A stretch of 64,000 nt of DNA from a virus. Lineage: Duplodnaviria > Caudoviricetes. The DNA lies in IMG/VR virus record IMGVR_UViG_3300014208_000002, positions 136,727 through 200,726 of that record. One strand, given 5' to 3'. A program made the translations under genes and the position numbers. Below the pieces are notes generated by a model. That model saw nothing but the letters and a program-made list of their open reading frames with translations. It was not told where the DNA came from and made no database searches. Shown here piece after piece: positions 60,022 through 64,000 of this stretch. Numbering within the stretch: position 1 is the stretch's first letter; each line of letters begins with the position of its first letter.

Positions 60022-61155
60022 ATGCGAATAATTAAACACTTTTATGAAAAGAATCTAACTGTTCCTGAAGCTATGGCTATATTTGGAATAACTGGATCAG
60101 TAGATGAAGAAGAACTAAAAAAGATATACAAAAAACTCTCTTTTGCCAATCACCCGGATCACGGCGGGTCTACTGATAAAATGCAAGACATAAATCAAGC
60201 TTATGATTTATTGAAAAAGAATGTAGGAAATACCTCCTCTACTAAAACCTATACTTACACCGATGCTGACCGAGCGGCAGACAAAAAGAAAGCAGAAGCC
60301 GCTTATGAACGAAAAAAGAAAATGTTCGAGGAAGATTATGACCAAGAGAAAATGAAAGATTACCTCCAACAATTTATGCAAGAGCCGCTTATTGCTGAAC
60401 CATTGGTTTTTCCTAAAGGCTATTATAATGATAATTTTACTGCCTACTCTAAAATTCACACAAGTGATAATAAGACTTACTTTGAGATATATTTTTCTGT
60501 AGAAGAAACCAATAAAGGTGGTCTATCCTATACTGGCATAGATGAAAAAGACATTCTATTTTCTGTAAGTACCTCTACAAGTATCTATCATGCGGCACGA
60601 AGCTTTAAGATAGGACAAAGTAGATATAATTGGCAAGCAGGGCGAAAGTCTCTTCTTGACCCTAAAGAGATATTCCCTCCTGTAAAAATTAAGAAGATAT
60701 TATCCGGGGAGAAAAAGAAACTATTCCGCCGTGCTGATATGGAATTGGGCATGAAAAGAGAACTACCCTATGTTAATTTTGATAAAGATATTTACTTTAT
60801 ATACCCCTTTGGAAAAGATGAAAGGTTCTATTTTAATTTAGGAAGATTGACTATGCCTAATTTTGGGGCCAGAAGTAATGCTCCTAGCGCACGAGTTTCT
60901 TATTATACCTTCGGGACAGCGCATTTTATTGACGCTAATACCCAAAAATATAGTAATGCCCGAACACAAATTGCTCCTGATTATGCCTATTCTTTTTTAG
61001 AAACAGAGGAGGGACTTGAAAAACTGGTAGATATGGTAAAAGAAGTTGTAGATCAAGTTAAAAAGCAAAAGTTTGATATTAAGAATGATGGTTTAAAAAT
61101 AGTTGAACTATTCAAAAACGCCATATTCAAGTATTTCCCGAAAGATAAAAAATAA
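60022..61155 (+). CDS. J-domain protein with large unknown C-terminal domain
   Basis: EAMAIFG...LKKIYKKLSFANHPDHGG...INQAYDLL. Confidence 0.8.
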   Translation: MRIIKHFYEKNLTVPEAMAIFGITGSVDEEELKKIYKKLSFANHPDHGGSTDKMQDINQAYDLLKKNVGNTSSTKTYTYTDADRAADKKKAEAAYERKKKMFEEDYDQEKMKDYLQQFMQEPLIAEPLVFPKGYYNDNFTAYSKIHTSDNKTYFEIYFSVEETNKGGLSYTGIDEKDILFSVSTSTSIYHAARSFKIGQSRYNWQAGRKSLLDPKEIFPPVKIKKILSGEKKKLFRRADMELGMKRELPYVNFDKDIYFIYPFGKDERFYFNLGRLTMPNFGARSNAPSARVSYYTFGTAHFIDANTQKYSNARTQIAPDYAYSFLETEEGLEKLVDMVKEVVDQVKKQKFDIKNDGLKIVELFKNAIFKYFPKDKK

Positions 61156-61191
61156 ATAATCTTTACTAATATAGATAGGAGAAAGTAAATA

Positions 61192-62553
61192 ATGAGATAT
61201 CTTCCTAAATTTAACGAAGCCTTCCAAACAGGAATGGCAAATAAGATTATTATAAAACTCGCCCGAATTCTTTCCCGCAAAGTAAAGCGAGAACTTCATG
61301 TAACTGAAGAGCCTATGGCTTATAAAAACGAGTATGGCAAATTCAATGGCTACCCTGTAGGTATTGAGAATTCAAAAAAGCTTATCCGAATAAATTTTGC
61401 CTTACTCAAATCCGATGAAATAGTGTCTGTAGACTTTTATGCAACTAAACTTGCTTTTGCTAAAGGAAAACCTACTTTTACTATTGATACCCTTGATGAA
61501 AATGGTGCGAGTCTAAATATCGTGCAGATAGTAGATTTGATTACTGAAAACCTCTATTCCTTTACAACCGATGATATTGATGAAGGTGAAATTAAAATAA
61601 CCGAGCGAGTAAATAGTGAGGGTCGCTATAAGATGCTTTTTGATGCTTGGCTAAAGGATCATCCAGAGTCTCTTATGAACCTTCAAACGAAAAGAATTGC
61701 GGATAATTATACAGACTTCCTTGCCGCCGATACAACTTATAATCAAGAAGTAAATCTTGCCAATTTTACTAAAATGGCAAAAGAATATTTATTTGGAAGA
61801 GGGCTAACTAATCCAACTTTCAGAAAGAAAAAGAAGGGAAGTCGTGAGCGGGTAATTGTAGATCAGGCAAAAGCCGACCAATTAGAAGATGTTCTTGAAA
61901 ATATGAGTTGGCAGGACAAATTTAGTGCGCTTATTAAGGCCGTCAAAGGAGTAGCCGCTGGAGTCATTCAAGCCCTTGTCTGCTGGGGTGCGCCCGGAAG
62001 TGGAAAGACCCAAACAATTTTAGATGCCTTAGATAAGGAAAAAGTTGATTATCATAAGTTCTCTGGCGGAGTAAAAAATACAGATGAGCTATTTAATATT
62101 CTCGTTAAATATAGCAATAATACTCTTATCGTTTTTGACGACTTTGACGGAATTCTGAAAAATTCTGATAATATCAATATCCTAAAAGCGGCAACTGAAA
62201 ATAAACCTAAACGAGAAATAACATGGAGAGGAAAAGTATTAAATTTTACATCTGGAGTTATTTTTATATCTAATTTACAGAAGTTTGATTCTGCACTAAT
62301 GTCTCGTGCATTACGAGTTCAAATTGACTTATCTAATGAGCAAATGTTAGACAAGATTGAAAAGACACTGAAGGATTTTATGCCTGATACTCCTATAGTA
62401 ATAAAGAGACAAGCTGTTGACTTTATAAAAGAAATTCAGGGCGGTTTAGCTTCAGTAGATTATAGAGAAATTTCTAAAGTTATTATCGCAATACAAATTG
62501 ATCCTAAAGACTGGAAAAAAACAGCTTTATTATTTATCAAGTCAGGAAATTAA
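61192..62553 (+). CDS. AAA+ ATPase with N-terminal extension
   Basis: WGAPGSGKT, VFDDFD, FISN, ALMSR. Confidence 0.8.
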   Translation: MRYLPKFNEAFQTGMANKIIIKLARILSRKVKRELHVTEEPMAYKNEYGKFNGYPVGIENSKKLIRINFALLKSDEIVSVDFYATKLAFAKGKPTFTIDTLDENGASLNIVQIVDLITENLYSFTTDDIDEGEIKITERVNSEGRYKMLFDAWLKDHPESLMNLQTKRIADNYTDFLAADTTYNQEVNLANFTKMAKEYLFGRGLTNPTFRKKKKGSRERVIVDQAKADQLEDVLENMSWQDKFSALIKAVKGVAAGVIQALVCWGAPGSGKTQTILDALDKEKVDYHKFSGGVKNTDELFNILVKYSNNTLIVFDDFDGILKNSDNINILKAATENKPKREITWRGKVLNFTSGVIFISNLQKFDSALMSRALRVQIDLSNEQMLDKIEKTLKDFMPDTPIVIKRQAVDFIKEIQGGLASVDYREISKVIIAIQIDPKDWKKTALLFIKSGN

Positions 62554-63372
62554 ATGATTGGTATATATTGTATTACTAATAAAATAAACGGAAAAAAATA
62601 TATAGGGCAATCTTGGGATATTGAAAGAAGGTGGAAGAGGCATAGAAGTAATGTAAAAAAGCCTAATGATGTTCATTTATATAGTGCTTTTACTAAGTAC
62701 GGAATAGAAAATTTTTCTTTTGAAGTTATTAGGGAAGTAAAAGAAAATGCTATTACACAAATTCTTTTAGATTGCTATGAAGACAAGTACATAAAACAGT
62801 TTGATACTTTAGACCGAAATAAAGGATATAATAAAAGAACTGGTGGAAGTTATGGAAGATTAAGTGAAGAAACAAAATTGAAAATGAGCGAAGCACAGAA
62901 AGGAAATAAAAACTGGTTAGGGCATAAGCATACAGAAGAAACCAAGCTAAAAATATCAGCAGGAAATAAAGGCAAGAATGTTGGAAAAAGTGCCTCAGAA
63001 GAAACAAGAGAAAAAATGAGCGAATCCCAAAAAGGTAGACATCATTCTGAAGAAACAAAAAGAAAAATAGGAGAGTCACATAGGGGTGAAAAAAATTGTA
63101 ATTACGGGAAATCTCTCCCAAAGAAAACTAAACAAAAAATGAGTGAATCAAGAAAAGGAAAAAAACTATCTGAAGAAACAAAGAGAAAATTAGGTAAAAA
63201 AGTGATTTGCTTAGAAACACAGGAAATTTTTAATAGTTTGAGAGATGCAGAAAAAAAATATAATATAGCACACGAAAGCATTTCCGCTTGTTGCAGGGGT
63301 AAGTTAAAGTCGGCTGGAAAATTAGATGGTAAAAAGCTTCATTGGAATTATTCTATAGAAGAAGGAGCATAA
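62554..63372 (+). mobile_element. Free-standing GIY-YIG homing endonuclease with NUMOD3 and NUMOD1
   Basis: MIGIYCITNKINGKKYIGQS...R; HTEETKLK repeats; KKVICLETQEIF. Confidence 0.9.
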
Positions 63373-63981
63373 ATGTGTTCAAAGAATTTCTCAAAATGCT
63401 TTTTGGTAAAATGTTTGGTTTTATTTCTAAGCATAAGTGGACTATTTCCGCCTTCTTTGCTGGCGCAATCCTCGCCGGATTCGGAATCTTCTACTACGCA
63501 AACTCAATCAGTAGCAGAACTATTGAAAGATTACAGGGAGAAATTACTACAATCGGGCGAAGTCTTAAAGAACTTGAGGACAACTATAATAGAGTTGAAC
63601 TTACAAAAAATGAGCTTATTAACACAAATCGACGACTTGTCGAAAGCCTCGGAGAAAGACAAGGAACAATTGAAGCTCTTGAGCGATCAAATAGCAAGCA
63701 ACGAGATATTATTGCAAGCCTTACAGAATCAGATAGACGAAGACAAGATTCAATTAACAAAATTGCAAATGCAGTTGGAACAATTGGACAAGGACTTGAA
63801 AGCGCAGGGGACGATATATCAAAACTTGAACTTCTCTTACAGCAACTTACAGACGGATTTTCAGTTATTGAATCAGTCCTTCAAGATTATGAAAGTTCAG
63901 CAGAAAATCGGTAGTACAGTAATTATTGTTTTGGCAGTAATAGTAGTTGGTGAAACTATTTGGATTATTTATAGGAGGTGA
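63373..63981 (+). CDS. Signal peptide + coiled coil + C-terminal TM protein (spanin-like component)
   Basis: GAAGGAG RBS; hydrophobic N-terminus ending LLA/QS; heptads; C-terminal STVIIVLAVIVVGETIWIIYRR. Confidence 0.7.
   Translation: MCSKNFSKCFLVKCLVLFLSISGLFPPSLLAQSSPDSESSTTQTQSVAELLKDYREKLLQSGEVLKNLRTTIIELNLQKMSLLTQIDDLSKASEKDKEQLKLLSDQIASNEILLQALQNQIDEDKIQLTKLQMQLEQLDKDLKAQGTIYQNLNFSYSNLQTDFQLLNQSFKIMKVQQKIGSTVIIVLAVIVVGETIWIIYRR
63411..63914 (+). CDS. N-terminal TM + coiled-coil protein embedded in another frame (i-spanin-like)
   Basis: WTISAFFAGAILAGFGIFYY followed by a long heptad region; start could be 63396 or 63411. Confidence 0.55.
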   Translation: MFGFISKHKWTISAFFAGAILAGFGIFYYANSISSRTIERLQGEITTIGRSLKELEDNYNRVELTKNELINTNRRLVESLGERQGTIEALERSNSKQRDIIASLTESDRRRQDSINKIANAVGTIGQGLESAGDDISKLELLLQQLTDGFSVIESVLQDYESSAENR

Positions 63982-64000
63982 AATAGATGCAATTGATTAG

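Follow-up and report, generated by a model that had tools for sequence, protein, structure and literature searches.

A fully overlapping phage gene pair that encodes two membrane-anchored helical proteins and may act as a lipoprotein-free substitute for spanins

Introduction

Two kinds of spanins have been described: the two-component systems, in which an i-spanin acts with a lipoprotein o-spanin and whose genes are embedded, overlapped or separated, and the unimolecular spanins (Kongari et al. 2018, PMC6139136). Both kinds need a lipoprotein signal, to which the unimolecular spanins add a C-terminal transmembrane domain (TMD) (PMC6139136). Moreover, Kongari et al. have argued that two-component spanins generally form intermolecular disulfides (PMC6139136). 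In phage T4, the spanin genes PseT.3 and PseT.2 do not lie near the holin and endolysin genes (PMC6139136). Nested spanin genes have also been reported from LambdaSo, where SO_2972a/b follow the conventional design in that the second frame encodes a lipoprotein and is translated from an internal start (bioRxiv 10.1101/2024.01.23.576932). No spanin was detected by Kongari et al. (2018) in about 13% of the genomes of phages of Gram-negative hosts. They pointed out that spanin genes located far apart would go undetected, and that an i-spanin function is conceivable for type I proteins (PMC6139136).

Here, we describe a gene pair of a different layout, which is located near the end of a stretch of 64,000 nucleotides of viral DNA (the window). 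The window represents the final 64 kb of a virus record of 200,726 bp with terminal repeats of 123 bp. Its last 123 bases are identical to the first 123 bases of the record and the sequence thus resumes at G000:C1:124. Identical DNA is present in groundwater metagenomes from two studies. The two genes, designated A and B, are predicted to encode a type I and a type II membrane protein, respectively, and overlap over the full length of B. In a literature search of incomplete coverage, no description of such a layout was found.

Layout of the gene pair

The initial annotation had reported two long overlapping open reading frames on the + strand, one extending from 63373 to 63981 (202 aa) and the other being open from 63342 to 63914, and both were recovered in the present analysis. 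The second frame is indeed open over this range, but the TTG codon at 63342 lies inside the upstream homing-endonuclease gene. B likely starts with the GTG at 63375, two bases past the ATG of A. The ESM Atlas contains the 179-aa product of the GTG start letter for letter, showing that a gene caller has picked GTG 63375, and lacks the A product. The features of the pair are as follows:

63362..63367, + strand: Shine-Dalgarno element AAGGAG, a single element for both start codons (read from the sequence)
63373..63377, + strand: twin start ATGTG, consisting of the ATG of A at 63373 and the GTG of B at 63375 (read from the sequence; arrangement shared in relatives)
63373..63981, + strand: gene A, 202 aa, predicted type I membrane protein (hydropathy, AF2, six orthologues)
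63373-63465, + strand: signal peptide of A, residues 1-31, predicted cut between LLA and QSS (prediction)
63913-63972, + strand: C-terminal transmembrane segment of A, residues ~181-200, followed by RR (prediction)
63915..63981, + strand: single-coding tail of A past the stop codon of B, encoding the membrane anchor; its final codons are shared with the ribosome-binding site of the gene that follows
63375..63914, + strand: gene B, 179 aa, predicted type II membrane protein (hydropathy, AF2, homologues)
63438-63500, + strand: transmembrane segment of B, residues ~22-42 (prediction)

The spacers between the AAGGAG element and the start codons have a length of 5 nt for the ATG of A and of 7 nt for the GTG of B (AAGGAG-cataa-ATGTG). 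At the 3' end, the codons for the two terminal arginine residues of A (AGG AGG) double as the Shine-Dalgarno sequence of the next gene (AGGAGGTGA). The overlap of 542 nt between A and B is the longest overlap of open reading frames on the same strand in the 200-kb genome, the runner-up having a length of 378 nt.

Relatives of the pair

An exhaustive phmmer search with B uncovered eight homologues, of which six are clear (E = 9e-25 to 2e-8, identity of 32-47%) and two are weaker, and a profile search added one further member, P0015. The DNA was analysed for six loci, namely L007, L008, L009, L010, L011 and L014, which together with the window gives seven loci. All six metagenomic relatives, which are 29-47% identical, keep the twin start, both reading frames and the tail of A past the stop codon of B. 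The ATGTG arrangement is also present in L007, L008 and L010, and in L009, L011 and L014 the sequence is ATGAATG instead, with the ATG of B coming first and that of A following 4 nt later. A single purine-rich element is found 5-7 nt before the twin start in each of the six relatives. In all seven loci, A occupies the +1 frame of B, and the third frame across the pair is interrupted by 11-32 stop codons (21 in the window).

At every relative's locus that was examined, the gene callers had annotated only B, and public protein databases therefore largely lack the A proteins. Neither A nor B gave a match in word-index protein searches, and single-protein scans of IMG/VR with A, B and two neighbouring genes did not yield a match either. 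Searches of the GenBank phages by blastn and tblastn with A, B and the proteins of three relatives returned only one hit at chance level. A closer alignment of four sequences found no match in IMG/VR or in prokaryote genomes, and its sole match in the JGI metagenomes was a second, truncated copy of the L009 phage. The look-alikes from the ESM Atlas all remained below 0.9 and serve as leads only. Since the read comparison showed that the second groundwater study contains the identical sequence, there is no usable microdiversity, except for two low-depth variants in a landfill contig. These variants (63954 and 63960) are located in the tail of A and are both synonymous in A.

Evidence for dual coding

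The absence of stop codons from both frames is hardly a matter of chance, as had been suspected from the sequence of the window. When the B protein was kept fixed and its synonymous codons were redrawn from the codon usage of the genome, the frame of A acquired 12.9 stop codons on average, as against none observed, and a stop-free frame did not occur in any of 20,000 redraws. In the reverse experiment, in which the A protein was fixed, about 20 stop codons were expected in the frame of B. Reshuffling the codons within each gene left the other frame free of stop codons in 0.06-2.4% of the trials, depending on the locus and the direction. The latter test is conservative because the codon set of either gene has already been shaped by the overlap.

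The comparison of the relatives points in the same direction. In the B alignment, the amino acid identity in the frame of A is 0.345, as compared to 0.215 +/- 0.007 that would be expected if only B were selected. Conversely, in the A alignment the identity in the frame of B is 0.309, as compared to 0.165 +/- 0.007 expected with selection on A only. Each protein thus exceeds the conservation that would arise as a by-product of the other frame by ~18-20 standard deviations (SD). By codon position in the frame of B, the nucleotide identities are 0.48/0.59/0.56. The wobble position of B is the second position of A, and it is therefore more conserved (0.56) than the first position of B (0.48). The upstream Zn-ribbon gene, which served as a single-coding control, shows identities of 0.56/0.58/0.42. 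According to these comparisons, both frames are under selection. Stop codons in the embedded frame of homologues, which the initial annotation had named as a reason to abandon the idea, were found in none of the six relatives.

Beyond the stop codon of B, the tail of A displays a normal coding pattern in its own frame, with nucleotide identities among the relatives of 0.57/0.49/0.38. In most relatives, a start codon in this frame is not available close by, so that the tail can be reached only through A. For the window, a separate open reading frame of 30 codons (ATG 63889) encoding the C-terminal anchor was considered and rejected, as the relatives lack an in-frame start codon at this place.

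A codon model trained on the long open reading frames of the genome assigned B a score of +48, which is that of a normal gene (the genes average 57.6 +/- 18). A scored -30, like the +1 frame of a gene, except past the stop codon of B, and the score favours A only after ~63850. The codon usage points to B as the older of the two frames, and A is slightly more conserved than B. Taken together, the pair very probably represents a true case of dual coding, in which two functional proteins would be both made and selected. The local GC content had been described as raised. However, the value of 0.368 for the pair is ordinary for this genome (mean 0.347, sd 0.041; 24% of the equal-sized windows are as high or higher) and seems high only beside the homing-endonuclease gene, which has a GC content of 0.308.

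Predicted architecture of A and B

Hydropathy and AF2 agree with the topology that had been read from frame A, that is, a signal peptide, a long helix and a C-terminal transmembrane segment ending in RR. Following the signal peptide, A contains a linker rich in Ser, Thr and Gln and one continuous helix comprising residues 37-201. With the family alignment, AF2 predicted a signal helix (residues 6-22), a disordered stretch (24-36) and a helix from 37 to 201 that ends in the anchor, with a mean pLDDT of 82 and values > 90 over residues 50-170. The orthologues from all six relatives have a canonical signal peptide with an SPase I site cut between A and Q or between A and S, a long heptad-rich region and, at the C-terminus, a hydrophobic segment that ends in basic residues. 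The members of the A family are 145-233 aa long and share the conserved C-terminal transmembrane segment; in the orthologues the anchor is encoded 67-88 nt beyond the stop codon of B. A lipobox of the form [LVI][ASTVI][GAS]C is absent from A and from all six orthologues, as had been noted for the window. As the third frame contains 21 stop codons, there is no possibility of a hidden lipoprotein ORF within the pair.

The second frame likewise encodes what had been proposed, an N-terminal transmembrane segment followed by a long helix, according to hydropathy and AF2. The basic N-terminus of B (residues 1-21) precedes the membrane segment and a long helical ectodomain that reaches residue 178. 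AF2 with the family alignment modelled B essentially as one helix (21-178), with pLDDT > 90 over residues 60-130. All nine members of the B family combine an N-terminal anchor with a helical remainder, and the anchor of the orthologues carries a motif similar to F..GA..AG.

The distribution of charges fits an orientation in which the N-terminus of B and the C-terminus of A are inside. The predicted exposed rods comprise ~143 residues in A and ~135 residues in B, corresponding to ~21 and ~20 nm, respectively, if extended. The ectodomains of the window's A and B contain no cysteine, and the A proteins of L007-L010 have one each. No homology between A and B was detected by hhalign. The complex prediction for the two ectodomains gave no answer on their binding (score 0.26, mark 0.32). 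Searches of Pfam with the pair returned only generic coiled-coil noise below the cut-offs.

Genome setting

The following features adjoin the pair or are located upstream of it:

62554..63372, + strand: GIY-YIG/NUMOD3 homing endonuclease gene, abutting the pair and ending one base before its start codon
63988..64000, continuing at G000:C1:110-670 (L002), + strand: next gene, 186 aa, 2H-phosphoesterase/RNA-ligase-like (phrog_755 'RNA ligase', E = 3.3e-9)
61164-61171 and 62574-62581: sites of the word TACTAATA, the first preceding the AAA-ATPase-like gene and the second lying 20 nt inside the homing-endonuclease ORF

In four relatives, a small Zn_ribbon_8 gene is located directly upstream of the pair and takes the place of the endonuclease gene. 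In a fifth relative, L010, this place is occupied by a gene of 83 aa that looks similar. Given that the relatives carry the Zn-ribbon gene at this position, the homing endonuclease looks like a recent insertion just 5' of the shared ribosome-binding site, and the gene abutting the pair is probably an insertion, as judged from the gene order. The NUMOD3 repeats of the endonuclease are matched by many unrelated metagenome contigs.

The gene starting at 63988 contains two H-x-T motifs and, from its sequence, it is best described as RNA-ligase-like rather than as a lysis gene. Thus, neither an endolysin nor a holin gene follows the pair in this genome, where the initial annotation had looked for them. 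Further upstream, the region from 60022 to 62553 encodes a protein of 377 aa that has a DnaJ (J) domain at its N-terminus, and a protein of 453 aa that weakly matches AAA ATPases. The word TACTAATA is enriched in the genome (26 sites as compared to 9.8 expected) and is nearly always found on the + strand; the orientation of the pair is the same as that of the upstream genes that are preceded by this word. In a relative carrying the L009 pair, a protein of 1032 aa with two radical-SAM-like CxxxCxxC regions is encoded just downstream (L016 643-3741, - strand).

Evidence bearing on a role in lysis

The B protein matches phrog_739, annotated as 'Rz-like spanin' (E = 5e-6), as well as phrog_214, and it is the only match to phrog_739 in the genome. 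Within the B family, six of the nine members match phrog_739 and two match phrog_89, all of which bear the name 'Rz-like spanin', and phrog_89 is also matched by two of the six members of the A family. The matches to phrog_739, 214 and 89 are recurrent but weak, the best E value being 8e-8. At a loose threshold (E <= 1), phrog_739 is unspecific, as it was matched in all 14 of the 14 control genomes, and the PHROG matches may partly reflect the make-up of a transmembrane segment plus a coiled coil. The profile of the B family showed no similarity to lambda Rz (hhalign probability 0.2%).

The best evidence from the gene context is provided by the distant relative L014, in which the order is that of a classic spanin position, with a Peptidase_M15_4 endolysin gene and a holin-like gene (66 aa, two transmembrane segments) directly preceding the pair. 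In L010, an Amidase_2 gene is located at a distance of 4.3 kb from the pair on the opposite strand. In most relatives, as in the window's genome, no lysis genes are located beside the pair. The neighbouring genes there encode a Zn-ribbon protein, an RNA-ligase-like protein and an AAA ATPase, and the endolysin of the window's genome (Amidase_2, phrog_9611) is encoded ~150 kb away. The distance from the endolysin is only a weak argument against a role in lysis because T4 PseT.3/PseT.2 are also distant (PMC6139136). The following regions of the genome have to be considered in this context:

G000:C1:47512-50820 (L006 3512-6820): probable lysis region with the Amidase_2 endolysin gene (phrog_9611) and two paralogous genes of ~110 aa
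G000:C1:110451-110978, - strand: lipoprotein gene, 175 aa, lipobox FSSC, just downstream of a 125-aa gene with one transmembrane segment (110451-111361)
G000:C1:68499-69074, - strand: lipoprotein gene, 191 aa, lipobox LAGC, InlB B-repeat/Flg_new_2, just downstream of a 91-aa gene with two transmembrane segments (68499-69346)

The probable lysis region also encodes a holin-like protein of 116 aa with two transmembrane segments and an N-terminally anchored protein of 290 aa, and an SLT transglycosylase with a signal anchor is encoded on its opposite strand. The region directly follows the Cys/Gly-rich fibre genes. Judged from their sequences, the two lipoproteins are possible alternative components of the envelope or of a spanin.

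The idea that A and B form a spanin-like lysis pair, which had been put forward initially, remains plausible in the light of the PHROG matches and of the gene order in L014. Other parts of the initial idea found no support, as no endolysin or holin gene follows the pair in this genome and the suggested spirochaete host is purely conjectural. Membrane fusion by the pair is likewise hypothetical, and no anchor for the outer membrane is evident in A or B. Because such an anchor and a lipobox are both lacking, the mechanism of Rz/Rz1 cannot apply as it stands.

Proposed mode of action and alternative explanations

According to the model that we favour, a single stretch of ~540 nt would give rise to two proteins, with A starting at ATG 63373 and B at GTG 63375 from one ribosome-binding site. 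B would be inserted into the cytoplasmic membrane by its N-terminal segment in an N-in orientation, and would extend its helical rod of ~20 nm into the periplasm like an i-spanin. A would leave the cytoplasm by means of its cleavable signal peptide, and its C-terminal segment would retain it in the same membrane, with the basic tail inside. The ~21 nm rod of A would point outward with the N-terminus at its tip, and the C-terminus of B would likewise be located at the far tip. The two rods may associate laterally, with their sequences running antiparallel and the two anchors at the base. Once the peptidoglycan has been removed by the endolysin, the pair could then act in the final step of lysis, either by destabilising the outer membrane or by fusing it to the inner membrane, thereby substituting for a spanin of the Rz/Rz1 type without a lipoprotein. 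For the whole account, which comprises the dual coding, the pairing of the A and B rods and the action at the last lysis step as a lipoprotein-free spanin substitute, we estimate a probability of about 0.5. A spanin-equivalent role in lysis, taken by itself, has an even chance of being correct. Somewhat more tentative is the specific proposal that a type I and a type II rod, co-translated from the twin start, constitute a lipoprotein-free spanin system that breaches the outer membrane without any lipid anchor.

Both proteins could also be real without disrupting the outer membrane, and form a periplasmic coiled-coil complex that is anchored in the inner membrane and has another role in the envelope, for instance in the timing of lysis (as partners of holins, like T4 RI), in superinfection exclusion or as a periplasmic scaffold. 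We regard such a role as rather unlikely. It would account for the fact that both predicted anchors belong to the cytoplasmic membrane and none to the outer membrane, for the location of the pair away from the lysis genes in the window's genome and most relatives, and for the weak matches to spanin families along with the lack of similarity to lambda Rz. However, it leaves aside that in L014 the pair sits where a spanin is classically found, behind an endolysin gene and a holin-like gene, that spanin is the top recurring PHROG label of the B family and that rods of ~20 nm match the width of the periplasm. Alternatively, A and B could together form the two-chain inner-membrane half of a spanin, the outer half of which would be a phage lipoprotein encoded elsewhere or an outer-membrane protein of the host. 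The two phage ORFs with canonical lipoboxes (LAGC and FSSC), each just downstream of a small membrane-protein gene, could supply such a partner, and the remarks of Kongari et al. on widely separated spanin genes and on type I i-spanins (PMC6139136) make the arrangement conceivable. Yet both lipoproteins are of considerable size (175 and 191 aa), one of them contains an InlB B-repeat (Flg_new_2), neither matches a spanin family and the short contigs of the relatives show no lipoprotein gene adjoining the pair, so that this split arrangement appears improbable.

The remaining explanations dispute that there are two proteins at all. If only one frame were functional, the other would be open but untranslated or useless, and kept by composition or chance. 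The codon usage, which fits B and resembles an off-frame in A, would agree with this possibility, as would the fact that gene callers report only B, and the translation of A and B is a prediction from the sequence. Nevertheless, we consider it very improbable in view of the two frames that are open in seven diverged loci in which the third frame is full of stop codons, of the excess conservation of each frame over the by-product expectation, and of the conservation of A's tail outside B, of A's signal peptide and of B's anchor. An assembly indel or a programmed frameshift could, in turn, generate one frame-switching protein, for example with the N-terminal part of B and the C-terminal anchor of A. 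The tail of A indeed looks orphaned after the stop codon of B, and the codon score turns to A after ~63850. However, seven independent assemblies contain both frames in full, each of which has a start and an N-terminal targeting signal of its own, the second groundwater study contains the identical sequence and the data are explained without any shift site, all of which makes such an event extremely improbable.

Implications

The pair is among the longest well-supported cases of complete dual coding on the same strand in phages, as an entire gene of 179 codons is contained within another frame. The twin start should set the ratio of the A and B products. Gene calling that allows only one frame would miss such devices, and half of the A/B system is invisible in public protein databases. 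If the pair does act as a spanin, disruption of the outer membrane would be possible without a lipoprotein, which bears on the phages that are regarded as 'spanin-less' (PMC6139136). Provided that the lipoprotein-free reading is true, it could explain a part of the ~13% of phages without a detected spanin (PMC6139136). Moreover, the pair is a clean test bed for the encoding of two coiled-coil proteins in one sequence.

Comparison with known systems

Several properties of the pair are reminiscent of the two-component spanins. As in lambda Rz/Rz1 and P2 LysB/LysC, B is predicted to be a type II inner-membrane protein with a periplasmic helix. The second gene occupies the +1 frame as in Rz/Rz1, and A extends past the stop codon of B as in the 'overlapped' class. 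Moreover, the pair ends the lysis cassette in one relative, and B matches the Rz-like spanin PHROGs. The differences concern the second protein and the layout of the overlap. An o-spanin is a small lipoprotein without a TMD, whereas A is as long as B, all-helical and equipped with an SPase-I-type signal and a C-terminal anchor. The overlap covers all of B and only a part of the first gene in Rz/Rz1, and the starts of A and B are 2-4 nt apart and served by one ribosome-binding site, in contrast to the internal start of Rz1. Unlike in any described spanin class, the overlap begins at the start codon of B itself. Furthermore, two-component spanins are expected to have at least one periplasmic cysteine for an intermolecular disulfide, and the ectodomains of the window's pair have none.

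The T4 genes PseT.3/PseT.2 resemble the pair in that they are located away from the holin and endolysin genes in a gene region of the RNA-repair type. In T4, pseT.2 and pseT.3 adjoin pseT, which recalls the position of the pair beside an RNA-ligase-like gene. However, the two T4 genes are separate from each other, and PseT.2, a lipoprotein of the outer membrane, has two cysteines that are essential (PMC6139136), whereas the genes described here overlap fully and do without a lipoprotein. A resembles T1 gp11 in that it has an export signal at the N-terminus and a transmembrane anchor at the C-terminus. The periplasmic part of T1 gp11 is mainly beta, and gp11 needs a lipobox and an N-terminal lipid anchor; in contrast, A lacks a lipobox, consists of a single long helix and is in all cases encoded together with B. 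Since no A protein carries a lipobox, the pair is neither a canonical Rz/Rz1 spanin nor a spanin of the T1 type. The layout of A, with a signal peptide, a heptad-repeat rod and a C-terminal anchor, is that of the class I viral fusion proteins.
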